Positions 48,049 through 63,720 of a DNA stretch of 64,000 bases are shown here, in pieces (position 1 is the first letter of the stretch; every line of letters starts with the position of its first letter). The notes under the pieces are model-generated. The model saw nothing but the letters and a program-made list of their open reading frames with translations, did no database searches and was not told the origin of the DNA. A program made the position numbers and the translations under genes. The stretch is from Candidatus Omnitrophota bacterium (lineage in GTDB: Bacteria > Omnitrophota > Gorgyraeia > Zapsychrales > JBAZNR01), in NCBI GenBank assembly GCA_041649175.1, contig JBAZNR010000001.1, forward strand, positions 386,332-450,331, read 5' to 3'.

Positions 48049-48567
48049 CTACTGGCAGATATTATCATCCGCGTTGATGCAGTCTTCAATGCAGTTTTGT
48101 TCTTCGGTCAATTCGCAACTTCGTTCGCAATCTCCGTGAAATTGGCTGGGATTACCGTTGGATTGGTTGCACCGATCACGACAGATCGTTGCGCATGCCG
48201 GATCGTAAAACATGCTATCAGGATCACAGAACATATCATAACAACCGTTGAGACAGGCTTGATAGTGGTTATAAAGCCCTCCTTCACAGCCAGACACGCA
48301 AGACGTGTGGATGGGATCATAACAAGCATTGTAGCATTGCAGGCTATACCAGCCTTCGTGCTCACCTTGAGCCCAAAGGCATTCGGTTGTTTTTTGCGGG
48401 TCATACTGGCGGCCTTCGCTGAACACTTCCGACGCTGATTTCCAGCGCCCGGCAAGTCCGCGCAAAATATATTTTTGCATTAACAGAATCGCACCGATCA
48501 TTAGAATGATCAAGGCGACATATTCTAAAGTTGAAGCAGCTTTTTTTTGACAAAAAAATTTAATCAT
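48049..48567 (-). CDS. TadE-like pseudopilin with a cysteine-rich C-terminal domain (172 aa, about 22 Cys)
   Basis: The N-terminus KKAASTLEYVALIILMIGAILL matches the TadE/Flp-type class-III signal and hydrophobic stem. The C-terminal half is packed with CxxxC and CxC pairs. Confidence 0.6.
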   Translation of the reverse strand: MIKFFCQKKAASTLEYVALIILMIGAILLMQKYILRGLAGRWKSASEVFSEGRQYDPQKTTECLWAQGEHEGWYSLQCYNACYDPIHTSCVSGCEGGLYNHYQACLNGCYDMFCDPDSMFYDPACATICRDRCNQSNGNPSQFHGDCERSCELTEEQNCIEDCINADDNICQ

Positions 48568-48570
48568 CGT

Positions 48571-51500
48571 TTACCATTGGCATTGGTCGCTAAATTTGAC
48601 ATTAAATCCCCAGGGATTGCCGTTATGCCAGAAATATTCCGCGCAAGATAAAGACATGACCCCGTGAGAAAGCAAGCTTTCGGCGCGCGCCCGGCAATCG
48701 TCATCCTTCACCATAAAAGCACCCTCAGTCGGAGTATCGAGACAACCACTTAAACTATTGATATTGCCGACAGAAGCAGGGCCTTTTTGCGGATGAGAAA
48801 ATGACATACCCCAAATCGGCATGGCATTAGCAAATCGAAATGATAAGTCTTTATCCTGATCCCAGCGGGTGACACGCACTTTTACTTTGCCGCCTTTGAA
48901 ACAACCCGTATGATGATACTCGTCTTGTTCATTGCACCAACTCACCTTGTCATATACATCACCTACTGAATTACAGCGGTGTTGATTAAATGTCCCGTGG
49001 ACAGAGTTCTTTACTCTTGGCCAGTCCGGTTCAGGAAGTCCAGGTCGTCCGCATCCGCCATCACAGCGCGTTGGTATCTTGGCTTCTACTCTCACAATAT
49101 GCCAACAACCCTTTTCTGAGCCGTCCGGATTACGCCCGCATCCTTTATCTGTTTTCCATCCATAGATCGCGTAAGGCGGCAAAGAAGGAATATCGCCCAG
49201 AAGAGAATCTTCGACGCTGCTAATGCCATTGGGGAGGTTGGCTGTTGTTAAAAACTCACTGATCTTTGTTCGCGCGTCAGCAAGTTTGGTAGCAGCATCA
49301 CCGGCTTTTGTATAGGCATCGCTTAGAAAATTGTAACGCTGTTGATATTTTTCCCTTAAAAGCGCTATATGTTCTAGAAATCCTGGATCAGCGCACTGCG
49401 GCCAAATACCGTTAACTGTATCGTATCCTAACGTGTTGTTGATAAAGTGAGTATTGAACAAGTGGCACGGCGTGACATCGCCGGAAGCATTACAGCTGTT
49501 ATAGCAAGCCTGCAGCATTTCAATGGTTCCATTGCCGGCGGGATTTTGGTAACAGCTAAGAACTTGCGGAATAATAGGAACACCCGGATAAGGAGCGATA
49601 TTATTATTGATCCACGTAACATTATTCGGACAAAATACCGATCGCATGCCTTCTGAATCCCAATATCCATGATACTGGCTATTGCCGTTGCGCCATCCGG
49701 ATAATTTTGCCCGCCACATATTTAAAGGCCCGGAGGCTTTCGCTAAGTCATAAAGAGCATTTCCATTAGAATTATCAATCCAGGTCTTAGCCTCATTATA
49801 CCAATCGTTAAACGAACTATAAATATCCTCGGGTGGCATGGCTAATGTTTTGGTGGCCCACACAATAAAATCATCCGTTGTTATTTTCATTTGGTCTAAG
49901 GAATCTTCCGGCCATTCGGAGGCGGGTGTGCCTGGGCTAGCGCTAAACGCATCCTCACAAGACTGATTGGCGGCGCAATGATCCGGATTATCATCATGAT
50001 CTAGATCTGCCGAGGGATCTAAGCAGCTTGGACAATCCCCCGGGCAATGTTTTCCGACACAGTTTTGATTATACGGCCACGTTTCTGAACAAAACTGATC
50101 ATCACCGCGTTTCCACTTAGGCCTGCTTCCGGTACAGGGAGCAGGCCCGAGATCCGCGTTGGTGACACAGCGGTCTTCTTGAGCGATCACGCATGTGGCA
50201 TTATGAATATTATCAAAATAGGCATCATCGTCCTGGTTTGTCGTCGTTAAACAACAGCTTTCTCCGGAACAATTTCCCGTAAGCGAAAGGCGCCCGACGG
50301 CATCAAAACTATCGCATCCCGGATAACGCGCATCACACCAAAAACACCCCTCGGGATGGTCCGGATTATGACTTGTATTATTTTGCAAATATGTCCGGTC
50401 GGCAACTTTCCAAAGGGCCGGAAATAAGCCGGTGGCATCTTCCGCGCGGTATTTTCCCATCACGTCACTAATCTGAGGATTGTTGTAGTTTCCCGGCGGG
50501 GAAGTTTTAAGCAGAGGATTTTCATCGTCGTGACCGAGAATTTCTCGAAAAGACTTAAAAGCATTGTTGCCGTTTTCATAAATGGGATCATAGACATAAG
50601 GCCAAGAAGTTGCCGGACAGGAGCTTGAGGGATCTTCCGTCGCATTGCAACGCAGTTCAGCTTCATCTTCCGTGCAGCATTCCGGGCGGATCTCTTGAGT
50701 AACGCCACGCCTCCACCACCCACCGCCAACAGGTATTGTCACCGTTTCTTCCGGCAAACAACAACAATTGCATTCCGCAGGACGGTTAGGATCCGTCACA
50801 TTGCAACAAGCATGCTCGCCGGCAGACTGCTGATGCGTATTTCCATCCGTACAGGTTGGCGTAAACGGATCCCACATGCCCCAATCATCATCGTGCACCG
50901 TTCCGCTTCTATCGGTATAAGATTCATAGATCAACTTTGAAAGAAGATCCTGAAACTGAGCAATTTTTTCAATATTTTCTAAACGCTCCTCCACCACATC
51001 AGAATTTTCTTGGATTTCCCGAACACGATTAGCATAATAATAACCGAACCGATTGGTTTTATCTCCTACGGAATCATCTGTCCCGCACCGATCACAAACT
51101 CCGTCCATATCTTCATCGAGATTATCTGGCATTTCTTTATTATCATCCACCACATTTTGAATCCCCATAAGGATCCCACGCTCTAAAAACTGGTCTTGCT
51201 GGGTCATTTTAGGAAACATCTTATTATAAAATTCGCTTAAACCGGGTTGAAGGACAGCAACAGAAAGAACGAAATTGATAGTAGCTCCGGCAAGCCCGGC
51301 ACCAGCCGAAATAGTCAACACTGTGGCTGCTTGTATAGCTGCAGGTGTCGCAGCTCCCGCCGTAAAGATAATAACGGCAATCAAAATAATCGCTGCTATA
51401 ACCAAAGTCGTTAAGTTCCTAAGAAAATTATGATCGGTCCCGCAAACATGCAAGTCCGCGCCGCCGTCTAAAACGTATTGATACAAATACTGCGAATAGC

Positions 51501-51720
51501 TGGCGATCTCAGATGCCAAAAACGCCGCGCCCAAATTAGCCGCGATGGTCACCTGCGCTTTTGTTTGCGCCACGCGCCCCAAATTCATCACCACCGCCAA
51601 AAAGATGATCAAAACCGCGGTGATCAAAATGAGGATAAGCGCCACTTGCCCTAAGCGTGCGTGCTTTGGCTTGATCGGCCTTAACGGATGAAGCAGTCTA
51701 TTTAAAAATTGAAAAATCAT
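48571..51720 (-). CDS. Giant TadG-like pilus-associated protein (1,049 aa) with a Cys-rich extracellular region
   Basis: The N-terminus RLGQVALILILITAVLIIFLAVVMNLGRV matches the TadG/TadE-like N-terminal motif. It is followed by a large Cys-rich segment (CCNVTDPNRPAECNCCCLPEE, CDRCGTDD...). Typical TadG is about 500 aa. Confidence 0.6.
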   Translation of the reverse strand: MIFQFLNRLLHPLRPIKPKHARLGQVALILILITAVLIIFLAVVMNLGRVAQTKAQVTIAANLGAAFLASEIASYSQYLYQYVLDGGADLHVCGTDHNFLRNLTTLVIAAIILIAVIIFTAGAATPAAIQAATVLTISAGAGLAGATINFVLSVAVLQPGLSEFYNKMFPKMTQQDQFLERGILMGIQNVVDDNKEMPDNLDEDMDGVCDRCGTDDSVGDKTNRFGYYYANRVREIQENSDVVEERLENIEKIAQFQDLLSKLIYESYTDRSGTVHDDDWGMWDPFTPTCTDGNTHQQSAGEHACCNVTDPNRPAECNCCCLPEETVTIPVGGGWWRRGVTQEIRPECCTEDEAELRCNATEDPSSSCPATSWPYVYDPIYENGNNAFKSFREILGHDDENPLLKTSPPGNYNNPQISDVMGKYRAEDATGLFPALWKVADRTYLQNNTSHNPDHPEGCFWCDARYPGCDSFDAVGRLSLTGNCSGESCCLTTTNQDDDAYFDNIHNATCVIAQEDRCVTNADLGPAPCTGSRPKWKRGDDQFCSETWPYNQNCVGKHCPGDCPSCLDPSADLDHDDNPDHCAANQSCEDAFSASPGTPASEWPEDSLDQMKITTDDFIVWATKTLAMPPEDIYSSFNDWYNEAKTWIDNSNGNALYDLAKASGPLNMWRAKLSGWRNGNSQYHGYWDSEGMRSVFCPNNVTWINNNIAPYPGVPIIPQVLSCYQNPAGNGTIEMLQACYNSCNASGDVTPCHLFNTHFINNTLGYDTVNGIWPQCADPGFLEHIALLREKYQQRYNFLSDAYTKAGDAATKLADARTKISEFLTTANLPNGISSVEDSLLGDIPSLPPYAIYGWKTDKGCGRNPDGSEKGCWHIVRVEAKIPTRCDGGCGRPGLPEPDWPRVKNSVHGTFNQHRCNSVGDVYDKVSWCNEQDEYHHTGCFKGGKVKVRVTRWDQDKDLSFRFANAMPIWGMSFSHPQKGPASVGNINSLSGCLDTPTEGAFMVKDDDCRARAESLLSHGVMSLSCAEYFWHNGNPWGFNVKFSDQCQW

Positions 51721-51730
51721 TATGTATTTC

Positions 51731-52060
51731 CTATTCTATTTCCTCTTCCGAACCGTCATCCGGAGGAGTGTCCCAGCCGTTAAAAACAAGATTCATGTCT
51801 GTCCCATCGTAGAAATCTGTTTGTAGCTGGCGCAAAGGCCCCGACATTGGGGAAGTGTCCCAATTTGAACCTTCGTTCACGAATCTGTCCGATAAGCTTT
51901 GATCATGCGCGATGCGCCGTTCGGCTAAACTTACTCCCGCCCATTGAAACGCCTTAATACAGCCGTAAATAATAAGCAGGATCATAATGAAACAAAAAGT
52001 GAATTCCATTGTCACTTGGGCCTGTTTGTTGCAAGATTTCTTAAAAATGGGACTTATCAT
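51731..52060 (-). CDS. TadE-like pseudopilin. The ORF track starts it at a TTG at 52,081, inside repeat C. An ATG at 52,058-52,060 (MISPIFKK...) is more likely.
   Basis: The TadE-like N-terminal motif is NKQAQVTMEFTFCFIMILLIIYG. The C-terminus is acidic. Confidence 0.55.
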   Translation of the reverse strand: MISPIFKKSCNKQAQVTMEFTFCFIMILLIIYGCIKAFQWAGVSLAERRIAHDQSLSDRFVNEGSNWDTSPMSGPLRQLQTDFYDGTDMNLVFNGWDTPPDDGSEEEIE

Positions 52061-52228: not shown

Positions 52229-53752
52229 TCACTTCACCGGATTAACATCATCCACCGGCGTTACCCATTTACGACCGCCGCTATCGGCAATAGCGCTTCG
52301 GACATAAAGCATTTTCTCAGCCTTGTTATAACAAGTTTGATTAAGATTTGCCTCTGACGAACATTCTCCCGCATTGGCCACGCAAACTTCAACAGCCGGA
52401 TTATCACAACCAGGATTCCAAGCACATTTATCGCCGTGGCTTCCGCAGCTGTCTGATCCATAGTTACAATATTCCGAATCATTAGGATTGAGATCAAGGC
52501 AACCATGCCGCGCCCAAAAGGGAACTTCTCCACAGGCCTCGTGGATATTATCATCTCCGGCTAAACAATTCCACATACGCCCCGTATCGTTGCTCAGTTG
52601 AAACTGCCGTTCAATAACATCGGTACAGTTTCTTTTTTGCGTATGACGAGTATATTGCTTGTCATCGTCATACAACTTTCCCTCTTCAACGGACATATGT
52701 GTTCCCTCAAAACACACCGAACGAATATAACTGTCTTGCTGAAATCCGGGGCGAGTTCCTTGCGGCCGTCCGGTAGCAGCTGTCGCCGGCGTATAGCCGC
52801 CACGCTCATCCCAAGTATTGTACGTTGTATCGATATCCCCATCCTGATAATCCATCACGTAAAACGTTTCAATGTTTGAAGTGCCTCCTTGGCAAATGGT
52901 ATCTAGGCCGCCGGTGTTACGCATGGTGGCAATGGCATCGCATTTTCCGTCGAAACCGCAGGCTTTTTGCACAAATTCTTCTTTTAAATCTCCGTCTAGA
53001 TCCAGCGAAATATTTTTTCCTTTATCAACATCGACACTGCCGCGTCTGATATCCACCGGTTTCCATTGCCAAGAAAACCTGCAGCGGGTGATGGGGACAC
53101 CTTCTACATCCGTATCTCCGTCCCTATCGAGATCGAAACGTTCATTTATTTGCGCGGCATTACAACTGCCTCGTCCTTCCGAACAATACGGGGAAGCCGC
53201 CGGAGCACAAAAACTATCATCCGCATTAACGATCTTCGTGTAAGCAACGGGGCATCCGATATTACCCGGCAGGCACATTTCATTCCATCCGAAATGGGGA
53301 TTGCCCGAAGCACCCGGAACTTGGATGATCTTAAAAGAAGCAGTAGAAAAATTGAATTGTTTTCCGTTAATATGAATGTCTTGAACAGGTATTTGTTCTG
53401 TATGCCCAAAGTCCGTTCCCATAAATAAATTGCGGGTAAATGTGCCTGTTCCGCCGAGAATATACGGCGTGCGGGAGCTGGAGCCGTATTTACCAGTTTC
53501 TACCGTTTTTCTATCTTCAATAAAAAGAACGCTGGCTGTATTGCGGGATGTGTTATTGGCTTGTCCGGAAAGAAATGAATTTTGCAAAGCTAAGCGCATG
53601 GCGCCCAAAGACTGATTTTGCACATAATTAAAATTGACCGCGTAGCGGATCATAGCCCCGAGGACAAAAATGAGGATAGCGCCAAAAATGGCCAACTCAG
53701 TGACTGTTTGGGCTTTTGGTTGGGCGAAAAACTTCTTTATTCTTTCTCTCAT
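52229..53752 (-). CDS. Large TadE/pseudopilin-like protein (about 507 aa) with a Cys-rich and Asp-rich ectodomain. The start is probably the ATG at 53,749-53,751 (MRERIKK...). The ORF-track start at 53,818 (TTG) would overlap flp7.
   Basis: The N-terminus KAQTVTELAIFGAILIFVLGAMI matches the TadE/Flp-type motif. The ectodomain has many Cys residues and Ca-binding-like D-x-D-x-D runs (DLDRDGDTD, DLDGD). Confidence 0.6.
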   Translation of the reverse strand: MRERIKKFFAQPKAQTVTELAIFGAILIFVLGAMIRYAVNFNYVQNQSLGAMRLALQNSFLSGQANNTSRNTASVLFIEDRKTVETGKYGSSSRTPYILGGTGTFTRNLFMGTDFGHTEQIPVQDIHINGKQFNFSTASFKIIQVPGASGNPHFGWNEMCLPGNIGCPVAYTKIVNADDSFCAPAASPYCSEGRGSCNAAQINERFDLDRDGDTDVEGVPITRCRFSWQWKPVDIRRGSVDVDKGKNISLDLDGDLKEEFVQKACGFDGKCDAIATMRNTGGLDTICQGGTSNIETFYVMDYQDGDIDTTYNTWDERGGYTPATAATGRPQGTRPGFQQDSYIRSVCFEGTHMSVEEGKLYDDDKQYTRHTQKRNCTDVIERQFQLSNDTGRMWNCLAGDDNIHEACGEVPFWARHGCLDLNPNDSEYCNYGSDSCGSHGDKCAWNPGCDNPAVEVCVANAGECSSEANLNQTCYNKAEKMLYVRSAIADSGGRKWVTPVDDVNPVK

Positions 53753-53759
53753 CAATATT

Positions 53760-54086
53760 TTATTCTCCGGCCACGGCGGAAGAGCCGCGGGTTCGCTCGA
53801 CACTATTTGAAGAATCAATACGAGTCGTCACTATTCCGTCTTCTCCATTCACTGTTGCGTTACTTGTTGTGATCCAGCTCACAGCGTCGGAAGTGATCGT
53901 ATGATTAATATGAGTATTCATCAGCGTCGGGTCATATTGCTCGCCTAAATTATCCACCGATTCTTTCCAGTTTCCCTGAATACCACGCTTCACATAAGTA
54001 CTGACCGCCACAAAAGCCCCTAAAATAATGATGATCAAAATCGCGTATTCCAAAGTTGTCTGAGCCTGATGTTTTTTTATGCGCAT
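53760..54086 (-). CDS. flp: Flp-type pilin paralogue 7 (108 aa)
   Basis: The N-terminus KKHQAQTTLEYAILIIIILGAFV fits the Flp motif (x)QxTxEY plus hydrophobic stem. Its stop lies 7 nt before the next gene. Confidence 0.65.
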   Translation of the reverse strand: MRIKKHQAQTTLEYAILIIIILGAFVAVSTYVKRGIQGNWKESVDNLGEQYDPTLMNTHINHTITSDAVSWITTSNATVNGEDGIVTTRIDSSNSVERTRGSSAVAGE

Positions 54087-54088
54087 AT

Positions 54089-54418
54089 TTACTCCCCGGG
54101 CGTAAAGCCCATATTGACCAAAGAATCCGATGAAGATGTTATTTCGTCATTAAAAACATAAGTAATATCATTGACCTGATGAATGAGCTGGCGATTCATA
54201 ATGCTATGACTATTTGAAACAGAATTGACCACATATTGATCCGTCGCTCCGGATTCTTGTTCCGACGCGCTTTGCGGAGCCAGCTGATCGGCGGCTAATC
54301 TTACCACATCTTGTAATCCGCGCCTGATGGGTGGGGACATCACCACCAAAGCGGTGGAAACAATTCCGACCAAAATAATGTATTCCATCAACGATTGGCC
54401 GCGCGTCATTTTTAACAT
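54089..54418 (-). CDS. flp: Flp-type pilin paralogue 6 (109 aa)
   Basis: The N-terminus MTRGQSLMEYIILVGIVSTALVV carries the G/QSxxEY class-III motif. Confidence 0.65.
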   Translation of the reverse strand: MLKMTRGQSLMEYIILVGIVSTALVVMSPPIRRGLQDVVRLAADQLAPQSASEQESGATDQYVVNSVSNSHSIMNRQLIHQVNDITYVFNDEITSSSDSLVNMGFTPGE

Positions 54419-54421
54419 ATT

Positions 54422-54793
54422 TTATCCGCCTTCTCCCGGAGGAAGTTGTACAGATACCGTATTAACAGACGTTGTATCGTCCTGTGACTTCCTGGAAATT
54501 CCAGTGCTTCCGCCGGGCAAAAGGATCTTATTTTGTTGAATACTGCGTTCTATATCAGAATTCGTCGCGGCATAATACGGTTCATATTCGCCGTAAAGCC
54601 TGCCGACGGCATTCGCTTCCACGCTGGCGTCTTTGACGATGTCCATCATGGTTGATTTGGCGTCATGAAGCCGCCCTTGCAAAGCCCGTTTTAACACAAT
54701 GGTCATCGCCATCAGCGCGGCGATCACCAGCGCGATCATGATAGCGTGTTCATTGGCCATTTGTCCGTTTTGACGAAAGAATATTTTACGCAT
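54422..54793 (-). CDS. Flp-like pilin paralogue 5 (123 aa), a divergent copy
   Basis: The N-terminus RQNGQMANEHAIMIALVIAALMAM is a divergent Flp-like motif. Confidence 0.5.
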   Translation of the reverse strand: MRKIFFRQNGQMANEHAIMIALVIAALMAMTIVLKRALQGRLHDAKSTMMDIVKDASVEANAVGRLYGEYEPYYAATNSDIERSIQQNKILLPGGSTGISRKSQDDTTSVNTVSVQLPPGEGG

Positions 54794-54880
54794 AAATTTC
54801 TACGAAATGTATTTTATATTTTAGATGAAAACAAGGTAAATCAAAAACGAAATTTGTTGAAGCTGCCCCGACTCGTGTGC

Positions 54881-55011
54881 TGCGGCGAAATTCTTTTCAA
54901 TAATTTCGCCGCACTCGTCGAGGTTCACTTTCTTCGTCTACAAACGTAGATGAAGAAAGTGAAAAAACACACATGGCTTACCCGAAGGTTTTTCTCTCCG
55001 GGTAAGCCATG
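54881..55011 (-). terminator. Three consecutive strong hairpins between flp4 and flp5, acting as an attenuator or partial terminator inside the operon
   Basis: At 54,972-55,011 a 13-bp stem catggcttacccg / cgggtaagccatg is followed on the minus-strand RNA by UGUGUUUUUU. At 54,926-54,961 there is a 16-bp perfect stem cactttcttcgtctac-aaac-gtagatgaagaaagtg. At 54,881-54,913 there is a 12-bp perfect stem tgcggcgaaatt-9-aatttcgccgca. Confidence 0.55.
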
Positions 55012-55029
55012 GTTTACAAACAATACAGG

Positions 55030-55365
55030 TTAATTTCCCCAATACTCCTGCTGTTGGTTGATGATCACCGTTTCAGAGTCGACATTGACCGTTTCTGCCT
55101 CAGTCAGCTCTGAGCGTGTAACGCCAGCATTGAACGTTTCTCTCGTTGAGCTAGTGGAGCTGGTTGTGCTATTAACCCTGGTGTTCCCGGGAGAGAATTG
55201 TTCGCCGATATCGTCGGCGGCCGATCTCAAACGCCCCTGAACACCTCTTTTAATGTAGAATTGAATGGACAGCAAAGCGCCGATGATAATAATGATCAAA
55301 ACAGCGTATTCCAACGTGCTTTGCGCCTTCATTTGTCTTAGTTTTTTTAACATTTTTATGTTCAC
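55030..55365 (-). CDS. flp: Flp-type pilin paralogue 4 (111 aa)
   Basis: The motif is KAQSTLEYAVLIIIIIGALL. A canonical ribosome-binding site, AGGAGGTG, precedes the ATG. Confidence 0.65.
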   Translation of the reverse strand: MNIKMLKKLRQMKAQSTLEYAVLIIIIIGALLSIQFYIKRGVQGRLRSAADDIGEQFSPGNTRVNSTTSSTSSTRETFNAGVTRSELTEAETVNVDSETVIINQQQEYWGN

Positions 55366-55399
55366 CTCCTAAAGAACTTAAGTTAGTGTGATCGATATT

Positions 55400-55801
55400 T
55401 TACGGAACCATTTCTATTTCAACGGCGCCACCACCTCCACCACCGCCGCCACCATCAGCTCCGGGGCCATTATATTGGTATTCCTGGAAACCACCTTCCA
55501 GGCGCTGAATATCGCTATTAGACGTCATCCCGATACCGCTTTCCGCTTCATTCATCACAACCGATGACTCGGAATTACGCGAGACATCGAATGCACTGGT
55601 CAGCTGTGTCGGTTCAAACTGCGTCGTTGTACCCAGCTCTGATGTATTATCGGCCATATACTGAGTAGCGTCATAAACTCTGGCCTGCAGAGCACGTTTG
55701 GCGTAAACCTGCATGGCAATGACCGCGCCGACGACAAGCGCGATCAAAATCGCGTACTCGGCGGTATTTTGCCCTCTTTTTTTGTTTAATTTTCTGAACA
55801 T
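55400..55801 (-). CDS. flp: Flp-type pilin paralogue 3 (133 aa) with a C-terminal poly-Gly tract of 10 residues
   Basis: The motif is KKRGQNTAEYAILIALVVGAV. The ribosome-binding site is AAGGAGGTG. The Gly tract is encoded by the ggyggyggy repeat at about 55,425-55,455. Confidence 0.7.
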   Translation of the reverse strand: MFRKLNKKRGQNTAEYAILIALVVGAVIAMQVYAKRALQARVYDATQYMADNTSELGTTTQFEPTQLTSAFDVSRNSESSVVMNEAESGIGMTSNSDIQRLEGGFQEYQYNGPGADGGGGGGGGGAVEIEMVP

Positions 55802-55849
55802 TTTATTTACACCTCCTTAAAAGGCTTTGATGTTCACATTAAAAATTAG

Positions 55850-56095
55850 TTACGGAATGACCACATCTTCATTGCCACCGCCGCCACCGCCACCTGAAGT
55901 ATGCGAATTGGAAAGTTTATCGGCCATGGTTTCCATTCCGTTAACGGTTGTCCCTAATGTACGGTCTAAGGCCGGGCGCAAAACTCCGCTGGGCCCTAAG
56001 AAAACGATGAGAACCGCCACAACTGCCGTCACTAAAATAATATACTCTAGTGTGCTTTGACCTCTTTTACTTTTTAGCTTCATGTTTTCATTCAC
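55850..56095 (-). CDS. flp: Flp-type pilin paralogue 2 (81 aa) with a C-terminal G7 tract
   Basis: The motif is KRGQSTLEYIILVTAVVAVLIVF. Confidence 0.7.
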   Translation of the reverse strand: MNENMKLKSKRGQSTLEYIILVTAVVAVLIVFLGPSGVLRPALDRTLGTTVNGMETMADKLSNSHTSGGGGGGGNEDVVIP

Positions 56096-56143
56096 CTCCT
56101 TAAGAGTGAACTTTTGTATGCTCCATAAAGCGAAGCAATATTT

Positions 56144-56299
56144 CTAGTTATCCCTCAATCCTTCTTCTACATTCTTTTGAGCTGCCTGAACCGCCCGGTA
56201 AACATAAGTACTCATGGTGATCATCGCCGCTGATACAAGAGCAATCACGAGGACATATTCTATTAGATTTTGTCCGTTTTTATTTTTCAGCCTCATCAT
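56144..56299 (-). CDS. flp: Flp-type pilin paralogue 1 (51 aa), not in the ORF track because it is under 60 aa
   Basis: Hand translated as MMRLKNKNGQNLIEYVLVIALVSAAMITMSTYVYRAVQAAQKNVEEGLRDN*. The ribosome-binding site AAGGAGGTG precedes the flp2 start in the spacer. Confidence 0.6.
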   Translation of the reverse strand: MMRLKNKNGQNLIEYVLVIALVSAAMITMSTYVYRAVQAAQKNVEEGLRDN

Positions 56300-56471
56300 C
56301 GCCTTGCCTATGTTTATCAAAGATTGTAGCCGCCCGCTTACAGCATCTCCGGCAACCGAAGAGCGAAGGATTTCATCCGCGCGGGCCCTCTATCTGTGAT
56401 CGCCTCTCGAAGACGATCACGTGAAAACGCCCGAGAATATCCATCGGGCGCAAAATACGTCATTTCTAAGC

Positions 56472-56504
56472 GAAAAAAAATCTCCGGAAAAATTTTCCGG
56501 AGAT
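56472..56504 (-). terminator. Rho-independent terminator after the 827-aa gene on the minus strand
   Basis: A perfect 9-bp stem atctccgga-aaaatttt-tccggagat (56,480-56,504) is followed on the minus-strand RNA by U8, seen as aaaaaaaa at 56,473-56,480 on the plus strand. The same ATCTCCGGA/TCCGGAGAT stem recurs at 45,073-45,096 in the giant-gene leader. Confidence 0.6.
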
Positions 56505-56682
56505 CACAATAGCTCCTTAAAAAATCATTAAGTAACGTGATGCAATATGTGTGAACAACGCTTGGTACCTTCATCATTTCTCCGTGGCTTAAGAAACAAT
56601 GAGACTTTGACTAAAATGGTATTACCTTTAATGCGTTATAAATATAACACATACAAAAAACAGGCGCAAGCACTTGTTTGGG

Positions 56683-59166
56683 TTAATTTTTCTCCTGATT
56701 TTCGATGCGGATTTGAAGCTTGCACCCCAAGGGATCACGCACATCGCTTTCGTTAAGGCGCGCCAGGGCATATTCCAGGTCTTTGCGGTAAAGATGGGTT
56801 GGGGGAAGAACAAGGCTCACAATGATACTATCCTTGCTCCTTTGAACAGAGCCGGATATTTGGTAAAAACGTTCTCTGATATCAGAAAAATTAAGCTTTT
56901 CATAGTGCAGTGGAAAGAAATGGCGCTGGCAATAGTTATTGAGCGCCGATAGAAGAAACTCAATATTCGTCTCCAAAGACGGCTCAGCCCTCAAAAGATT
57001 GTATTGGCCTCCTCCTTCTAACAAGTTAACTCGGTCATGGGACGGAGTAACGCTCACAACTCCATAAGAAGCTTTTTCGGTCCGGGCGGTAAAATCCTGA
57101 TAACTTTCTTGAAAGTTTGGCCAGCGAGCAAGAAAAGCGGCGATTACATCTTCCGCCGACATTTCTTCCGAAAGGATATTGGTGACGATCGCCATCACCG
57201 GCCAGTCTAAGGCGCTATCACGCAAAAGAAGGGCTCTCACGCGCGTTTTTTGCCCAATGAGCGGTTGTTCCAGTTTTGTTTTAAGTTCGCTGTAATACAC
57301 TTCTTTTCCGACGGAATCACAATAAAAATGATTGATCAAGCGCGCGTCTTCTTCGATAAATTTTCTGCATTCTTCCTGCCAGGGCCAGGCGCCGGCCATA
57401 AAAAGCCTTCGTTTGGCCGGAATAGCCGTAAACTTGGCGATCTCTTCTTTGTTGCCGTCAAAAATACCGATGCGGGATATGTTTTTTCCGGATGAATTTT
57501 CGAAACTTAAAAAAAGCTCATAGAACTGTTTCGCAAAACTCTTGTATCCGGGAATACTATTAATAATAACGGGCTGAACATTGCTAATGATATTTGAAGA
57601 AAGAGACTCAATGATCTTGTTCATGGGCATCGTAAATGCAGATTGAACATTATTTTCATTCCAAATCGTTTGAAATTGCCCGTCGACGCATATTTCAGAT
57701 TTATCCTGCGCTGTTATCTTGATATAGCTTATTTCAGAAAATGTCTGCGAGTACTCATTGGCCATTTGCATGGAAAGACTTTTGAGATTTTGAACGCTGG
57801 TGGTTAGTTTTTCTAATATTTCCGCGTTAAGATGTTGTTTTTGTTTGATGCCGTTGATCCCCCAAAGGCCGTCTTGGGTATAATTCTTAATATCCCCGAT
57901 TTTCTTAATATTAAACGCCGGAAAATATAAAAGCACTTCGCTGGCTAAATTGATATCGACCGGCAAATAAACTTCACTATGCTTGCTTAAAAGTCCGCCG
58001 AGCATAGACGCGTTCGATAACTGCCACTGGGCGGCTTTTAAAAAGAAACATCCCATCCCATCCCAAACGGGAGGTTTTTCTCCCGAAATAATTTCCGGCT
58101 TCTTTTCCGGAGAAAAATATTCCGCTTCCGGAGTCCATATTTTGTCATCAGAAGAGGCGGCCGGTTTTGGTGTAGCTTCTTTTGGCTTCTCTTCTTTGGA
58201 AGTTTCTTTCCCGGCAAAAGGATCGGCTAGTAGGGGGCTTTCCTGCGGAACCGTTGGCGCGATTTCCGGCATAGATTCCGGAACACTGTCCACAACAGCT
58301 TCGGGAACAGCCTCCGGTGCGGCTTCAGGAGCAGCTTCAGGAGCAACTTCAGGCACAGCCTCTGGCGCGACTTCAGGAGCGGCTTCAGGAGCGGCTTCAG
58401 GAGCAGCTTCAGGAGCAACTTCAGGCACAACTTCCGGGACAACTTCAGGGGTAATTTCCGGCGCAGGCTCCGGTACGGGTTCTGGGACACTTTCTTGAGG
58501 CGCGGGTTCAATTTTCTTTTCGGGAATAGATTGTTTTTCTTCCACGATCGGCGCTTGAGCCATAGGATCCGGAAGAAGTGAAATATATTCTTGCGGTTCT
58601 TCTTGTTCCGGTTCCAAAATAGGCAAAATAGGCTCTGTGGCGCTGGGCTCTTTCTCTATTTGAACTTCCTTAGAAATATCAGCTAGGGCTTCCGACTTCA
58701 CTTCGGTCAGATCCGGTAAAATAATGGGAGGTTTTTCGGAAGACTTTTCAGGAAGTTTTTCCTCTTTGGACATTTTTTCTTGCGAGGCTAAGTCTATTTT
58801 TCCAAGTTCCACGGAAATATCTTTATTTTTTGACGGTTCGACCGGAAATTGCTCTTTCGTAACCGAAATTTTTGGCGGCTCGTCATGAACAGAGAGCAGT
58901 GCTTGTTTTTCCGTAAATAATTGTTCTTTTCTTTTTTCGGGAATCTTGAATTTCTGCGGCTTGCCTTCTTTTTCGGCCCTTCTTCCGACGGGACTGCTAA
59001 GAGCTGAACTTTTCAGAATGGCGTTGACGGAGGATTTGGAAACTTCGCATTGAAATTTTTCGCGGATCAAATCGGAGATCTTGCGGCAGCTAAGATCGGG
59101 ATTATCCCGTTTTTGCGTGACAACAAAATCAATAACTTCCTGTTTTAATTTGTAAACAACACCCAT
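56683..59166 (-). CDS. 827-aa protein with an N-terminal HTH, a long Pro/Glu/Ala-rich region (including a PE(A/V) tandem repeat) and a C-terminal domain of unknown function, possibly transposase-derived
   Basis: The HTH-like N-terminus is ...LSCRKISDLIREKFQCEVSKSSVNAILK. A Pro/Glu/Ala-rich segment about 250 aa long includes the uninterrupted tandem repeat PEVVPEVVPEVAPEAAPEAAPEAAPEVAPEAVPEVAPEAAPEAAPEAVPEAV. The C-terminal 450 aa contain an RW...E...K stretch, AAFLARWPNFQESYQDFTARTEK, that loosely recalls the DDE-transposase YREK region. No TIRs were seen. Confidence 0.55.
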   Translation of the reverse strand: MGVVYKLKQEVIDFVVTQKRDNPDLSCRKISDLIREKFQCEVSKSSVNAILKSSALSSPVGRRAEKEGKPQKFKIPEKRKEQLFTEKQALLSVHDEPPKISVTKEQFPVEPSKNKDISVELGKIDLASQEKMSKEEKLPEKSSEKPPIILPDLTEVKSEALADISKEVQIEKEPSATEPILPILEPEQEEPQEYISLLPDPMAQAPIVEEKQSIPEKKIEPAPQESVPEPVPEPAPEITPEVVPEVVPEVAPEAAPEAAPEAAPEVAPEAVPEVAPEAAPEAAPEAVPEAVVDSVPESMPEIAPTVPQESPLLADPFAGKETSKEEKPKEATPKPAASSDDKIWTPEAEYFSPEKKPEIISGEKPPVWDGMGCFFLKAAQWQLSNASMLGGLLSKHSEVYLPVDINLASEVLLYFPAFNIKKIGDIKNYTQDGLWGINGIKQKQHLNAEILEKLTTSVQNLKSLSMQMANEYSQTFSEISYIKITAQDKSEICVDGQFQTIWNENNVQSAFTMPMNKIIESLSSNIISNVQPVIINSIPGYKSFAKQFYELFLSFENSSGKNISRIGIFDGNKEEIAKFTAIPAKRRLFMAGAWPWQEECRKFIEEDARLINHFYCDSVGKEVYYSELKTKLEQPLIGQKTRVRALLLRDSALDWPVMAIVTNILSEEMSAEDVIAAFLARWPNFQESYQDFTARTEKASYGVVSVTPSHDRVNLLEGGGQYNLLRAEPSLETNIEFLLSALNNYCQRHFFPLHYEKLNFSDIRERFYQISGSVQRSKDSIIVSLVLPPTHLYRKDLEYALARLNESDVRDPLGCKLQIRIENQEKN
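58230..58500. repeat. Near-perfect 9/18-bp tandem DNA repeat encoding the PE(A/V) array (gcttcaggagcRgcttcaggagca...)
   Basis: About 15 units are seen directly. This explains the artefactual ORFs 57983..58498(+) and 58227..58511(-). Confidence 0.7.
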
Positions 59167-59926: not shown

Positions 59927-62092
59927 TTAAGTGTGAATTAGGAAAATTTCTTTTTTAAGAGGAATACCGCGCATCACCAGCTCATTATAACAAGCAGGCG
60001 TATAGCCGGTGGGCCGGTAATGGCCTAAAACTTTTCCGTCTTCACTCATACCGGTTTGCTCAAATAAAAAGACGTCTTTTAGATCAAGCTGGGTCGCATC
60101 TAACATTCCGACCACTTCGGTAATTCCGGTAATTTTTCTTGTCCCGTCGGAAAAACGGGCAATGTGGACAACAATGTCAATGGCGGTGGCGATCATTTCA
60201 TACATGGCGCGAAGGGGGAGTTCAATGCCGCTTAAAAGCATCATGGCACTCATGCGAATAAGAACATCGCGGGTAGAGTTGGCATGCAATGTAGTCAGTG
60301 ATCCGTCGTGGCCGGTATTCATCGCTTGAAGCATATCCAAAATTTCCGGCCCACGGCATTCTCCAATAATAATACGGTCGGGACGCATACGCAGCGTATT
60401 AATGAACAGGTCACGAATAGTGATCTCACCTTTGCCTTCTACGTTCGACGGCCGAGACTCCAAACGGCCCCAATGGCGCTGTTTGAGTTTTAACTCGGCG
60501 GCATCTTCAATGGTGATGATGCGTTCTCCCTCGGGAATAAAAGAAGAAATAACATTTAAAAGGGTGGTTTTTCCGGCACCGGTCCCTCCGGAAACGATAA
60601 TATTTTTTCGCCCCACAACACAGGCATTAAGAAAATCCGCCATGGATTGCGACATGCTGTCAAAACGTTTTAAGAGATCTTCAATGGTGTAACGTTCTTG
60701 GCCGAATTTTCTGATGGTCACCATCGGGCCGTTCAAAGCCAAAGGCGGGATGATCGCGTTAATACGCGACCCGTCGGGAAGACGAGCGTCGACCATCGGG
60801 ACCGATTCATCAATGCGCCGGCCTAAAGGAGCGATGATCCTTTCAATAATGGCGCGAACCTGCTCATTGGAAATAAATTTCTTATTGGTTAAGATCATCT
60901 TGCCGTTTTTTTCAATATAAATTTCATCTTTGCTGTTGACCATAATATCGTTAACATCCGCATCCGCTAGAAGGTCTTCCAGGGCGCCTAACCCTAAAGC
61001 CTCGTCGGCAATTTCTTTGACCAAGCGGGTTCTTTCTTCGTGAGAGGAAATAATAGCCCCGGCTTCTTGGGTTAAAAGATCCCCGATGATCTTTTCGGTG
61101 GTGGCACGCAGCGCTGGCGCCCGGCGAGGATCGCTTAAAGATTCGACGCTGATCTGTTGAAGATTTAATTTTTCTATTAATCGTTCATGGATTTTCTTTT
61201 TTAATTTAATAATGTCATCATCTTCATCCACCTGGGCCATAAAATCTTGGCCTTGGATGATTTTTTCGGTCAGCCCGAATTTATCCCAAAATCCGGCGGG
61301 CTTGGGCAGATCAGCGGTGGTGCGTAATTTGGCGATTTCCGTTCCCTGGACAAATAGATCTTCTTTGCTTAATTCTGCGGCGATCTTTTTAAATGCTTCC
61401 GCAACGGCACTGCGCGGGCTGTCCATCACGCATGGAACCCCGCGGTTTAAGGCCATACCGACCACTTTTCCGTCGGAAGGGACATGGGCAAAGATCTCAC
61501 AGGGAAGAGCCATGCGCACTTCCTGCCAGGCAACGCCTCCGCGGCTTTCCGAACGGTTCAAGATCATCTTGACCATCTTGAGCGGAAAATGCAGGCTTTG
61601 GAGAACATCCAAGCTCCAGCGTGTTTGATAAACTGCTAAAATATCCGGGGTGGCCACCAGCATGATCAAATTGGAATGGTCAAAAACGGTGATGAGCGTT
61701 TCGCTAAAGGCTTTTCCGACGTCAATGACCACATAATCATAAAAAGCGGCAGCGGCTTTTAAAAACGGCTTGATATTGTCGGGCGTGATATGGCCAACTT
61801 GCTTGGTGTGGGCAACCGCCGGAATAAAATCTAATCCAGACGTGTGCGTGGTGACATATTTCTTGATAACATTTTCCTGGCCAGGTTTTTCCAGTTCGCC
61901 TAAAACATCGACCATGGCGTGGCGTGGCGCGACATTGAGCATGCGCGCCATATCCTGGCCGGCCTGAAAATCCATATCGACCAGTAAGACCTTTTGGCCC
62001 GTCAAAGCCAGCGCTACGGAAACATTCACCGAAATAAATGTTTTTCCGACGCCGCCTTTGTTGCTAAAAACAGAAATTGTTTTGGATTTCAT
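59927..62092 (-). CDS. Fusion ATPase with an N-terminal MinD/ParA-like domain (TadZ/CpaE-like) joined to a CpaF/TadA (VirB11-family) secretion ATPase
   Basis: The N-terminus has a deviant Walker A, SNKGGVGKTF. The C-terminal half has the Walker A GGTGAGKTT and the family motif IIGECRG, plus other conserved CpaF blocks. Confidence 0.85.
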   Translation of the reverse strand: MKSKTISVFSNKGGVGKTFISVNVSVALALTGQKVLLVDMDFQAGQDMARMLNVAPRHAMVDVLGELEKPGQENVIKKYVTTHTSGLDFIPAVAHTKQVGHITPDNIKPFLKAAAAFYDYVVIDVGKAFSETLITVFDHSNLIMLVATPDILAVYQTRWSLDVLQSLHFPLKMVKMILNRSESRGGVAWQEVRMALPCEIFAHVPSDGKVVGMALNRGVPCVMDSPRSAVAEAFKKIAAELSKEDLFVQGTEIAKLRTTADLPKPAGFWDKFGLTEKIIQGQDFMAQVDEDDDIIKLKKKIHERLIEKLNLQQISVESLSDPRRAPALRATTEKIIGDLLTQEAGAIISSHEERTRLVKEIADEALGLGALEDLLADADVNDIMVNSKDEIYIEKNGKMILTNKKFISNEQVRAIIERIIAPLGRRIDESVPMVDARLPDGSRINAIIPPLALNGPMVTIRKFGQERYTIEDLLKRFDSMSQSMADFLNACVVGRKNIIVSGGTGAGKTTLLNVISSFIPEGERIITIEDAAELKLKQRHWGRLESRPSNVEGKGEITIRDLFINTLRMRPDRIIIGECRGPEILDMLQAMNTGHDGSLTTLHANSTRDVLIRMSAMMLLSGIELPLRAMYEMIATAIDIVVHIARFSDGTRKITGITEVVGMLDATQLDLKDVFLFEQTGMSEDGKVLGHYRPTGYTPACYNELVMRGIPLKKEIFLIHT

Positions 62093-62100
62093 CTGTGTAT

Positions 62101-63720
62101 TTAAGATCTATCTAAATTATAAACGATCGGTATCGTCACCGTGATATCTTGCAGATTTAGCTCGGAGGGAAAAACCGTATAAGGCGCTAAGTTTTTAGCC
62201 GCGTTAACAGCGTCGCGGTCAAAAATATCATAACCGGAAGATTCCTGAACAGAGGCTGACGCGAGTGTTCCGTCTTTGAGGATATGCAGCATCAGCTTAA
62301 CCGTTCCTTCCCAGCCATATTGCCGGGCTTTTTCCGGGTAAACAACCGATTGGGCGATCTTTTCTTGGATCGAGCGCACATACGGGATGAGTTCTTGTGG
62401 GATAAATGTTTTTGCCGACGCGGCCGACGGAGAAACCAAAGCCGATGTTACGTTTTGATCCGCCTTTTTTTCATTAGGCACGCTAAAATCTTCCGTGGTC
62501 ACGGTTTGTTCGGCGGCGGCTCTTTTATGATGCGTTAAGATCGTCGGCGTTAAGCTGATGACAAGTTCTGTTTCTTTATTTGGCGTTTTATTGGTTGTGC
62601 GAAATAAAGCTCCTAAGACCGGGACATCGCTAAAAATGGGAATGCGCTTAATGGTCTCTCCGTTATCATATTTGATAAGCCCGGCTAAAATAACCGTTTG
62701 CCCGTTTTCCAAATACAATTGGGTTTGAGCGGTGCGCGTGGTAAAGGCCACATTATTCCCGACGGCATTGGTCGAGTCAATATCGCTGACTTCCAATTTT
62801 AATTCAACGTCGATCTTTTCGTCTTTGATGGTCGGCTTAACGGTTAAGTTAACGCCGTAATCTTTGTACTGCAAGTTTTCTTGAACATTCCCGCCGGAAG
62901 AAGTTGTCGTCGTTGAAACCGGGATTTGTCCTCCTACTAAAAAGCTGGCTTCTTTACCGCTGACGCAAACTAATTTTGGCTTAGATAAAATGCGGCCCTT
63001 GCCTTCGGTAATCAAGGCATTAATAGTGCCTAAAATTTGTGTGGTACGGCTAAATTCTCCCACGCGAAAAACATCTTTGATCTTATCAATTTTCCCCGAC
63101 GGCAACGCTTCGGTAAAGGTCAAAGCGCTGGTCCATTCAATGCCCATATTTTTAGTATAGCTAGAGGTCAATTCCGAGATCTGCGCGTCTATCTGCACTA
63201 AATCATTGATATCTTCTTCTTTGGTCAAATTAAGAATGCTTTCCGAAAAACGCTCCAAGACTTTATCTAAACTTTCTTTCTTGTCCGAACCGATCGTTCC
63301 CGAAACCATCACTTTTCCTTCGAGTTGGTTCACTTCGGTATAAATTCCGGAAATATTGGACTCAGCTAAAAGTTCTTGCATGCGGGTTTTTATAAGATTG
63401 AGGTCTTCTCCGACAACGCGCAAGACCAAAGAACGTTTGCCGTAGCTATCCCAAATAAAAAGCAATGTTTTACCGGGCTGTTTGGCGATCATCAAGATAT
63501 GATCATCCTCAGCTTTAACAACATCCGCGACGTTAGGATCGGTGATAGAAACACGCGTGAGGCTGTACGTTTTGATGGTTTCGAGTTCTCCGACGACCAT
63601 TTGAATCTCTTCTTCTACCATGGAATCAAAGATGGCTTTGTTGCTATCAGCAGCCAAAAGGAAGGAGGCAGAGAAAAATCCACCGACTATCAAAGCTAAA
63701 AATAAAAATTTTTTCATCAT
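62101..63720 (-). CDS. Tad secretin (CpaC/RcpA-like) with a C-terminal TonB-C-like domain
   Basis: There is a signal peptide MMKKFLFLALIVGGFFSASFLLAAD. Secretin-core blocks are present (...ILSKPKLVCVSGKEASFLVGGQIPV...YKDYGVNLTVKPTI...IPIFSDVPVLGALF). The C-terminus, YPEKARQYGWEGTVKLMLHILKDGTLASASVQESSGYDIFDRDAVNAAKNLAPYTVFP, matches the TonB_C pattern YP..A...G.EG.V...F.I..DG.V....V..SSG...LD.AA..A......F.P. Confidence 0.85.
   Translation of the reverse strand: MMKKFLFLALIVGGFFSASFLLAADSNKAIFDSMVEEEIQMVVGELETIKTYSLTRVSITDPNVADVVKAEDDHILMIAKQPGKTLLFIWDSYGKRSLVLRVVGEDLNLIKTRMQELLAESNISGIYTEVNQLEGKVMVSGTIGSDKKESLDKVLERFSESILNLTKEEDINDLVQIDAQISELTSSYTKNMGIEWTSALTFTEALPSGKIDKIKDVFRVGEFSRTTQILGTINALITEGKGRILSKPKLVCVSGKEASFLVGGQIPVSTTTTSSGGNVQENLQYKDYGVNLTVKPTIKDEKIDVELKLEVSDIDSTNAVGNNVAFTTRTAQTQLYLENGQTVILAGLIKYDNGETIKRIPIFSDVPVLGALFRTTNKTPNKETELVISLTPTILTHHKRAAAEQTVTTEDFSVPNEKKADQNVTSALVSPSAASAKTFIPQELIPYVRSIQEKIAQSVVYPEKARQYGWEGTVKLMLHILKDGTLASASVQESSGYDIFDRDAVNAAKNLAPYTVFPSELNLQDITVTIPIVYNLDRS

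Follow-up and report, generated by a model that had tools for sequence, protein, structure and literature searches.

An ordered array of seven pilin-like genes with a conserved terminator-like hairpin in a Tad/Kil-like locus of Candidatus Omnitrophota

The DNA considered here is a 64-kb stretch of the Candidatus Omnitrophota contig JBAZNR010000001.1 (hereafter "the window"), whose minus strand carries the locus of a Tad/Kil-like (type IVc) filament machine. Our subject is the pilin module of that machine, i.e. seven consecutive pilin-like genes, named flp1 to flp7, together with the structured spacer between flp4 and flp5. The genes run in the order secretin, TadZ-TadA, DUF192, an 827-aa repeat protein, the pilin array, a 1049-aa protein, TadB and TadC (Table 1), followed by a giant open reading frame (ORF), so that the core of a Tad (type IVc) locus (TadA-type ATPase, TadZ, two TadB/C proteins, RcpA secretin and pilin genes) is found in one cluster. 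In NCBI the products of flp3, flp4 and flp5 are hypothetical proteins (WC676_01485, WC676_01480 and WC676_01475) of a metagenome-assembled genome (MAG) labelled "Candidatus Omnitrophota bacterium", on a 1.23-Mb contig. The type of locus has already been published; what is new is the resolved order of seven pilin families, a conserved terminator element with extra hairpins, and tiers of Shine-Dalgarno (SD) strength.

Table 1. Features of the locus in the direction of transcription; positions are those of the window
Feature	Position	Strand	Description and evidence
RcpA-type secretin	62101-63720	minus	C-terminal TonB_C domain; Secretin 147.1 bits, TonB_C 68.3 bits, T2SS-T3SS_pil_N
TadZ-TadA fusion ATPase	59927-62092	minus	721 aa; T2SSE 199.6 bits and ParA/AAA_31 domain
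827-aa protein	56683-59166	minus	between DUF192 gene and flp1; weak N-terminal HTH_32 match
Promoter-like site	56641-56669	minus	TTGCGC-17 nt-TATATT, TG two bases upstream of the -10; read from sequence, putative function
Terminator-like hairpin with U run, flp1 leader	56471-56505	minus	in the leader of ~345 nt; 12 pairs, then TTTTTTCGCT
flp1	56144-56299	minus	50/51 aa; G|QNLIEY; short canonical Flp-like prepilin; weak SD
flp2	55850-56083	minus	77 aa; G|QSTLEY; AGGAGGTG SD; tail G7-NEDVVIP
flp3	55400-55801	minus	133 aa; G|QNTAEY; AGGAGGTG SD; tail G9-AVEIEMVP
flp4	55030-55353	minus	107 aa; A|QSTLEY; AGGAGGTG SD
Hairpin 1, predicted intrinsic terminator after flp4	54962-55015	minus	stem 55011-54972, U tract to 54962; -30.7 kcal/mol, z -8.3, U6
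Hairpin 2	54926-54961	minus	10 bp + 1x1 mismatch + 5 bp, GUUU loop; -19.8 kcal/mol, z -6.5, without U tract
Hairpin 3	54867-54922	minus	long, irregular, inner stem GGCGAAAUU/AAUUUCGCC; -25.5 kcal/mol, z -4.9, without U tract
flp5	54422-54793	minus	123 aa; G|QMANEH; without SD; fast evolving
flp6	54089-54418	minus	109 aa; G|QSLMEY; start 3 nt past flp5 stop
flp7	53760-54086	minus	108 aa; A|QTTLEY; start 2 nt past flp6 stop
Large pseudopilin	52229-53752	minus	507 aa; A|QTVTEL; Cys-rich C-terminus; start 7 nt past flp7 stop; no Pfam match
TadE-like pseudopilin	51731-52060	minus	109 aa; A|QVTMEF; by signal motif and position; no Pfam match
1049-aa protein	48571-51720	minus	N-terminal membrane helix; putatively TadG-like, by position; no Pfam match
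Pilin-like protein	48049-48567	minus	172 aa; Cys-rich; A|ASTLEY; YILRGLAGRW
TadB-like platform protein	46970-47827	minus	T2SSF, one of a pair at 56.8/56.2 bits
TadC-like platform protein	45910-46815	minus	T2SSF, one of a pair at 56.8/56.2 bits

In all seven flp proteins a short basic leader ends in G or A (position -1). Residue +1 is Q and residue +5 is E; then comes a hydrophobic helix some 20 residues long, followed in most of them by a Y-x-K-R-G-x-Q-G-R motif (alignment A1). The features expected of a prepilin (a leader ending in G/A, XXXXE(Y/F) and a helix) are thus seen in every one, with Y at +6 in six and H in flp5. Seven tandem class III genes on the minus strand had been described in an earlier note on this DNA, and the ORFs bear this out, although the cluster as a whole was undercounted, as the genes of the 507-, 109- and 172-aa proteins bring the total to 10. 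The consensus given in that note, xQ(S/N)T(L/A)EY, is exact in flp2 to flp4 but not in flp1, flp5, flp6 or flp7. When the strict class III signature was sought in all six frames of the window, its 10 occurrences all fell in the cluster, and therefore these ORFs are not a product of chance. In related loci the places of the 507- and 1049-aa genes are taken by orthologues of 494-582 and 997-1265 aa, respectively. Cysteine is very abundant both in the 172-aa protein and in the C-terminal part of the 507-aa one, which suggests disulfide-knotted extracellular domains.

We compared the proteins with curated families, using the gathering scores of Flp_Fap (PF04964, 32.2 bits) and Class_IIIsignal (PF04021, 23.7 bits) as cut-offs. 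Flp_Fap gave 23.9 bits (E 3.7e-5) for flp1, under the cut-off, and no match for flp2 to flp7; Class_IIIsignal was passed by flp2 (27.6 bits), matched weakly and under the cut-off by flp3 (17.6), flp6 and flp7 (14.0 each), and gave no match for flp1, flp4 and flp5. For flp4 and flp5 there was no Pfam match of any kind, and a search of the pilin proteins against NCBIfam returned no pilin match. Likewise, the 109-, 507- and 1049-aa proteins matched nothing in Pfam or NCBIfam, including TadE (PF07811) and Tad_N-type families, despite their signal motif or N-terminal helix and their position. In size, only flp1 and flp2 fit an Flp protein of 50-80 aa that is essentially helical, the other five having 107-133 aa. 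The earlier note had named a lack of Flp hidden Markov model (HMM) hits as evidence against its assignment, and for six of the seven genes such hits are indeed lacking; on the other side stand the sub-threshold match of flp1 and the Class_IIIsignal match of flp2. Since the class III signal and the locus context compensate for the missing matches, we consider it very probable that all seven encode Tad-type pilin-like proteins.

Structural models made with AlphaFold2 from 50-sequence alignments give flp4 a helix (residues 13-52) and a long beta-hairpin (58-97), at a mean pLDDT (predicted local distance difference test) of 78, and flp3 a helix (9-55), a beta-hairpin (73-100) and a low-confidence tail that includes the glycine run (pLDDT <50 at 116-125). 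Both models have the "lollipop" outline of a minimal pilin and exceed a canonical Flp in size. No relative was found among solved structures: the MS2 coat beta-hairpins that were the top Foldseek matches of the flp4 model are not significant, and we rejected both Geopilin, which profile A1 matched at E 0.2, and the CW_7 lysozyme repeat (5i8l), matched by the same profile at E 0.002 through three stretches that are each non-significant. Residues ~33-55 of flp4, flp7 and the 172-aa protein, RG(I/V/L)QG(N/R)(W/L)K...(D)xxGEQ(Y/F)(D/S)P, do weakly resemble the CW_7 cell-wall-binding repeat of the Cpl-7 lysozyme, probably by coincidence, because this segment is modelled inside the long pilin helix.

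Two sets of related loci were available for comparison: six (L082, L083 and L203 to L206) obtained through flp3 homologues, without use of the hairpin motif described below, and five metagenome contigs (L102, L109, L115, L162 and L177) found with that motif. The six carry the same gene series in the same order as the window, and ordered series are also present in L102, L115, L162 and L177; the sizes in relatives run ~50, ~65-70, ~120 and ~109 aa, then a gap, then ~120, ~110, ~110, ~500, ~90 and at least 1000 aa. The best match of each flp protein of the window is the protein of equal rank in the relatives' arrays. Identity to these positional orthologues is 56-71% for flp1, 61-67% for flp4, 47-61% for flp3, 45-52% for flp7, 38-45% for flp6 and 29-44% for flp5. 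Database searches detected 1369 homologues of flp4, which are 58-71% identical to it along their whole length, 660 of flp3 and six of flp5. With a full-length identity second to that of flp1 and the most detectable homologues, flp4 is a candidate for the major subunit. By these comparisons each of the seven genes belongs to an orthologue family of its own. The families diverged anciently, and their order has been preserved in at least eight other Omnitrophota loci. The word paralogues, used in the earlier note, is wrong if taken to mean a local expansion.

More distant loci put the array into context. L003, an Omnitrophota locus whose TadA is 51% identical, has nine class III ORFs of similar sub-types, and 80 Tad loci of other phyla with a TadZ-TadA fusion usually have 0-4 pilin-like genes near tadA, with seven in one of them (L032). 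A large pilin set is therefore a lineage trait that is not unique to this lineage. In L203 the flp4-flp5 spacer contains an inserted PDDEXK_3 gene (6895-7263) past the hairpin, and a 23S_rRNA_IVP gene (10060-10407) follows the large pseudopilin; judged from this locus, the spacers seem to tolerate insertions.

The spacer between flp4 and flp5 (54794-55029, 236 nt) folds with a minimum free energy of -86.3 kcal/mol (z = -8.8; 0 of 200 shuffles as stable), and the folding agrees with the three hairpins previously noted there, the first of them with a U tract. Hairpin 1, with the conserved core GGCUUACCCG...CGGGUAAGCC, is the top-scoring terminator-like site of the region, and in the window and all related loci it has the makings of an intrinsic terminator, i.e. 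a stable hairpin and a U tract past a stop codon. It lies 18-35 nt past the flp4 stop in every locus of the flp1-7 layout: in seven out of seven found independently of the motif (the window and the six relatives) and in the motif-found L102/L115, L109, L162 and L177. Its core, GGCUUAC(C/U)(C/U)G...GUAAGCC and then the U tract, is near-invariant. In an alignment of 11 loci (A3), 92.8% of the hairpin 1 cells are paired, against 31-54% in slid controls, and in six pairs, located at the two ends of the stem, both partners have changed, a level of covariation reached by none of 500 shuffles. A covariance model of the element (R1), run against 87 sources that include the 80 Tad loci of other phyla, matched just the flp-array loci, the exception being a weak match in L017 (24.9 bits, E 0.008); it also recovered, at 60 bits, a copy outside its training set after the in-array flp4 of L177.

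Not every array has the element: L003 has neither a gap between flp4 and flp5 nor the hairpin, so that hairpin 1 is a trait of the sub-lineage with the flp1-7 layout rather than of all Omnitrophota. Where it is present it appears bound to its gene. Besides its main array, each of L177 and L109 contains an additional flp4 that stands alone (1-309 and 1833-2254, respectively), ahead of the promoter of flp1-4 and with the same hairpin behind it. Since the two were duplicated together, flp4 and hairpin 1 behave as a unit.

The other two hairpins are more restricted. L082 and L083 have hairpin 1 only; the triple arrangement is common to the window and L204, and two further hairpins are also found in L102 and L206. 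Between the window and L204, the aligned spacers of which have a mean column identity of 72%, hairpin 2 keeps its shape with a different sequence, and hairpin 3 reads GGCGAAAUUAUUGAAAAGAAUUUCGCC in the window and GGCAAAAUUAUCCAAGAGAAUUUUGCC in L204, with G-C to A-U changes. Searches with Rfam 15 of the flp4-flp5 spacer and the flp1 leader gave nothing at gathering score; the sub-threshold matches, to Spot_42 (26 bits, where 80 are required) and, in the L204 hairpins read on the opposite strand, to ftsZ-DE (43.8 of the 72.2 bits required), are at chance level. A possible mini-ORF in hairpin 1 (MAYPERKTFG*) was rejected as a by-product of the palindrome, being in frame with a stop in five of 11 loci and lacking its ATG in L082, L083 and L203. 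A scan of metagenomes with the hairpin-core pattern gave 119 matches, mostly chance or unrelated palindromes, with flp arrays only in the five contigs named above. Thus the bare 10-nt stem is not specific, while the full R1 element is. Among the unrelated palindromes, ACGAAAGGCTTACCTGACTGCAATCGGGTAAGCCTCTCT recurs; it has the same 10-nt stem as hairpin 1 but no pilin genes beside it (contigs L096, L098, L107, L108, L110, L133, L140, L147, L153 and others, mainly MWW*).

The sequence of hairpin 1 is conserved beyond a terminator's need, as the control provided by the terminator-like hairpin in the flp1 leader keeps its place in most loci but not its sequence. One may therefore consider that hairpin 1, with or without hairpins 2 and 3, acts as a sequence-specific regulatory RNA, a putative site for an antiterminator, an RNA-binding protein or a small RNA (sRNA). 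Given some signal, for example contact with prey, the bound factor would then allow expression of the tip pilins, of the platform proteins and perhaps of the giant protein. Seven base pairs of the stem (GGCUUAC/GUAAGCC) are invariant in 11 loci, seven of them found without the motif, next to an flp4 that is just 61-67% identical, and R1 finds nothing in the Tad loci of other phyla but the weak match mentioned; the compensatory changes in hairpins 2 and 3 and the additional hairpins of L102 and L206 point the same way. However, no candidate binding protein or partner RNA was identified, no Rfam family was matched, the loop varies in length and sequence, two loci have hairpin 1 alone, and the conservation could simply reflect co-inheritance with the most conserved gene, with which the hairpin has been jointly duplicated. 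On balance we regard a regulatory RNA as improbable.

Translation signals divide the genes into tiers at the same place. The free energy of SD:anti-SD pairing, computed with the canonical anti-SD, which may not be the host's own, is -13.4 kcal/mol for flp2 and flp3 and -11.5 for flp4, each with AGGAGGTG; it is -7.4 for flp6, -7.6 for flp7, -6.6 for the 507-aa gene, -4.5 for flp1 (GGCAAGG) and +0.2 for flp5. Most of the remaining genes of the locus fall between 0 and -4. In the six relatives flp2 to flp4 have values of -10 to -13.5 and flp5 is near zero, except in L083. Strong ribosome-binding sites had been ascribed to flp1 through flp4, which is right for flp2, flp3 and flp4 but not for flp1. 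The gaps from flp5 to the 507-aa gene, 3, 2 and 7 nt as measured and 2-7 nt as first reported, are consistent with translational coupling.

There are two ways in which the genes past the hairpins might be transcribed. If the hairpins end the flp1-4 mRNA and stabilise it against exonucleases, flp5 onward could form a second transcription unit with its own promoter in the spacer and a short-leader, SD-less mRNA, with no attenuation involved. The hairpins are certainly very stable, a promoter-like site (9/12) is found at 54840-54811, ending 17 nt before the flp5 ATG, flp5 has no SD in the window, L082 and L203 to L205, as would fit a short or leaderless mRNA, and the spacer is at least 200 nt in the window, L204 and L205. 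In L083, however, hairpin 1 ends 18 nt before the ATG of an flp5 that has its own SD, which leaves no space for a promoter, and therefore this flp5 can be reached by read-through alone; in L082 the spacer past the hairpin is only ~55 nt, and promoter-like sites in the region are no commoner than in shuffled sequence (15 vs 13.7). We judge two independent units to be unlikely. As to the attenuation of minor pilins between two expression blocks that the earlier note proposed, the split at flp4-flp5 is backed by the conserved terminator with its compensatory changes, the SD tiers and the faster evolution downstream, while attenuation itself is what we infer from them; taken as a whole, with its paralogues and slippage, the earlier interpretation is partly supported.

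The model that we favour, and hold to be reasonably probable, is as follows. Transcription would start at a sigma-70-type promoter ~345 nt upstream of flp1, and flp1 to flp4, above all flp2 to flp4, would be made in bulk as shaft (major) subunits. Most transcripts would end at the flp4 terminator (hairpin 1), and read-through, perhaps helped in long-spacer lineages by a secondary promoter, would yield a low level of mRNA for flp5 to flp7 and the 507-aa pseudopilin, whose translation is presumably coupled. These low-abundance products, perhaps with the 109-, 1049- and 172-aa proteins, may be priming or tip pilins, by analogy with the tip complexes of the Myxococcus Kil system and with TadE/F/G. 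Several observations weigh against this model. Among the seven flp proteins, six are without a match to any curated pilin family, and with the flp4 model as query Foldseek found nothing in the PDB below E 0.4. A hairpin as stable as hairpin 1, if efficient, would leave the essential TadB and TadC in need of another promoter or of antitermination, and the ~180 nt between the hairpins and flp5 contain the weak promoter-like site already mentioned (TTTACC-18-TAAAAT). The stem conserved in excess of a terminator's requirements may have a further function, and the major subunit may be any among flp1 to flp4.

Two of the shaft candidates carry poly-glycine tails. flp2 ends in ...HTS-G7-NEDVVIP (Gly codons 55874-55894) and flp3 in ...GAD-G9-AVEIEMVP (55427-55453), so that of the tracts first read as G7 and G10 the former is correct and the latter is G9. 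The codons are mixed GGN (TRF detects one 9-nt repeat in each gene, x2 and perfect in flp2, x3.1 with 84% matches in flp3), and the 3' ends of the two genes are alike, the GGN run being followed by ...TTCCGTAA in tails that close with (I/V)P and the stop. The flp2 orthologues end in ...RPLSP with no glycine run, and among the matches listed a run of four or more G is absent from the other 119 flp3 homologues, the closest of which (P0002, 60% identical) ends in ...AGDGG at the same place. In terms of sequence, then, the tails are recent, lineage-specific C-terminal extensions that are not conserved, and, as modelled, they are probably disordered and lie on the filament surface.

It had been suggested that the tracts could change length by slippage, i.e. 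that they are contingency loci in which slipped-strand mispairing varies the pilus surface. Period-3 GGN runs with 9-nt repeats, similar tails on two neighbouring genes and the ending of P0002 are what one would cite for this. Yet mixed codons leave no homopolymer or long perfect repeat, the listed flp3 homologues have no comparable run, and any change in length would leave the frame intact and affect nothing but a disordered linker. Logan contig L001, an independent assembly from the same population and the only second copy of this DNA, has flp2 and flp3 ORFs of the same length (77 and 133 aa) and is 100% identical in the aligned flp4-flp5 stretch; identical as it is, it tells us little about variation of the tracts. 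We found no support for slippage and consider contingency loci very improbable.

The region upstream of flp1 also has signals of its own. Nine related loci have an equivalent of the promoter-like site of the window, CTTGACA-N-TGnTATA(T/C)T, but in the window the -35 is weaker, and a promoter scanner did not pick the site up. Across these loci the conserved promoter, of the extended -10 type (CTTGACA...TGnTATAnT), sits ~190-400 nt ahead of flp1, with a structured leader after it (56300-56680, minus strand, in the window; L083 7200-7580; L203 5210-5560; L205 5216-5448; L109 819-1051; and others). A leader motif, GCCACGGAGAAAT, precedes a short non-conserved ORF and the terminator-like hairpin with its U run, which recurs at the same relative place in most related loci. 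The leaders of relatives further share a small hairpin (ACACC-GNRA-GGUGU), a stem (GCCC...GGGC) and, in a single-stranded part, a conserved (A)AUAGAG; the flp1 leader may be an undescribed cis-regulatory leader or an sRNA.

Among the neighbouring genes, that of the 827-aa protein has ~11 tandem 12-nt repeats (58296-58449) coding for PEAA/PEVA units, and its position is occupied in related loci by unannotated proteins of 621-953 aa. The TadZ-TadA fusion has full-length matches across many phyla; its nearest relatives in GTDB genomes are in Omnitrophota MAGs (63% and 51% identity). RcpA-type secretins with TonB_C are also present in related Omnitrophota loci, and in L083 RcpC lies upstream of the secretin. 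A Peptidase_A24 (TadV/CpaA) candidate was found neither among the ORFs of the window, as had been stated before, nor among the called genes of the six relatives. Directly downstream of tadC, on the minus strand, is a stop-free frame that extends from 45013 past the left edge of the window (1-45013), a length of at least 15,004 codons, with a Peptidase_C39 domain ~200-283 residues from its start; it is a giant gene of the Omnitrophota type.

The position of the locus directly upstream of this giant ORF, with its N-terminal C39 peptidase domain, raises a question of function that is separate from the expression model and compatible with it: the machine might build a short periplasmic pseudopilus like that of a type II secretion system (T2SS), pushing or presenting the giant protein, rather than an adhesive surface pilus. 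With ten pilin-like genes the locus comes nearer to a T2SS, which has a major pseudopilin and four minor ones, than to a canonical Tad locus. The TadZ-TadA fusion ATPase, the two TadB/C-type platform proteins and the RcpA-type N-terminal domain of the secretin all speak for a Tad machine, and the closest described relatives, Tad and Kil pili, are extended filaments, so that a pseudopilus seems to us rather doubtful. More speculative still is a combined picture, a filament/checkpoint module dedicated to the giant protein, in which a heteropolymeric Tad-derived filament would have flp2 to flp4 as its shaft and flp5 to flp7 with the large Cys-rich pseudopilins as a cap, the giant protein would be delivered to prey cells or displayed on them, and a factor bound to the invariant hairpin would gate the tip, platform and giant genes on demand; we think it a long shot.

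In the canonical order, that of Aggregatibacter actinomycetemcomitans, the genes are flp-1-flp-2-tadV-rcpCAB-tadZABCDEFG, and the tad locus of this species is reported, in work by Kram et al. (2008; cited in PMC3767616), to have a transcriptional "termination cascade" in which terminators inside the operon favour the pilin genes. The locus described here resembles a canonical Tad locus in its G/XXXXEY-type class III signal, TadA, TadZ, TadB/C, RcpA secretin and candidate TadE/F/G-like pseudopilins and, as far as we infer, in keeping pilin genes above downstream genes through intra-operon terminators. It differs in having seven pilin-like genes and three pseudopilins where a canonical locus has one or two flp genes and tadE/F/G, in that five of the seven proteins are of 107-133 aa, with flp3 and flp4 modelled as a helix plus beta-hairpin, whereas a canonical Flp has 50-80 aa and is all-helical, and in that the pilin genes lie downstream of tadZ-tadA instead of heading the locus. 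TadZ and TadA are fused, the secretin has TonB_C, neither tadV nor tadD is nearby, and the sequence of the terminator is conserved.

The Kil system of Myxococcus xanthus is a Tad-like predation pilus with a major pilin (KilP), adapters (KilK/KilO) and KilL/M/N tip complexes, its pilin genes being scattered over several clusters with four interchangeable tips (PMC12075869). The likeness lies in a Tad-like machine of a (suspected) predator that has a major pilin, small Flp-like adapters and larger minor pilins, including a very large modular one. It is a likeness by class. Here all pilin-like genes are in one fixed array, and the window showed no T3SS*-like partner. In its C-terminal half, the TadA encoded in the window is 55-58% identical to Myxococcota homologues. 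A resemblance to archaeal pilins with class III signals (PF04021; EppA/PibD substrates) is also apparent, with flp2 above the cut-off and flp3, flp6 and flp7 weak, in the motif Q-x-(S/T)-x-E-x-x-x-L and in small proteins of a helix and a beta-element, but the present host is bacterial, and its machine includes a secretin in the outer membrane. We rejected an "archaeal-like" Q at +1 as a special trait, since 97 of 138 such ORFs in bacterial Tad loci with TadZ-TadA fusions, from many phyla, share it.

Tad complexes and giant ORFs have been reported in Omnitrophota (Seymour et al. 2023, PMC10066038), and the "type II secretion system-like"/Tad locus that precedes their giant genes, treated by Seymour et al. 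and in a 2023 preprint by West-Roberts et al. (10.1101/2023.11.21.568195), is, from the parts of these accounts available to us, the same system. Those parts do not describe seven ordered orthologue families, a terminator hairpin after flp4, tiers of ribosome-binding sites or poly-Gly tails.

Omnitrophota are widespread, uncultured and ultra-small bacteria, suspected to be predators or parasites, whose giant genes are almost always preceded by this secretion/pilus locus. What had appeared there as "many small class III signal genes" resolves into seven fixed pilin families and three pseudopilins, of which flp1 to flp4, and especially flp2 to flp4, appear to be built for high expression and the rest for low, with an RNA hairpin of conserved sequence at the boundary. 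The families offer targets for metatranscriptomics, metaproteomics, complex structure prediction and heterologous expression, and the conserved hairpin (R1) is a compact marker for the locus in fragmented metagenomes. The general picture of Tad systems is unchanged by these results; it is extended to an unusually elaborate, phylum-wide variant.

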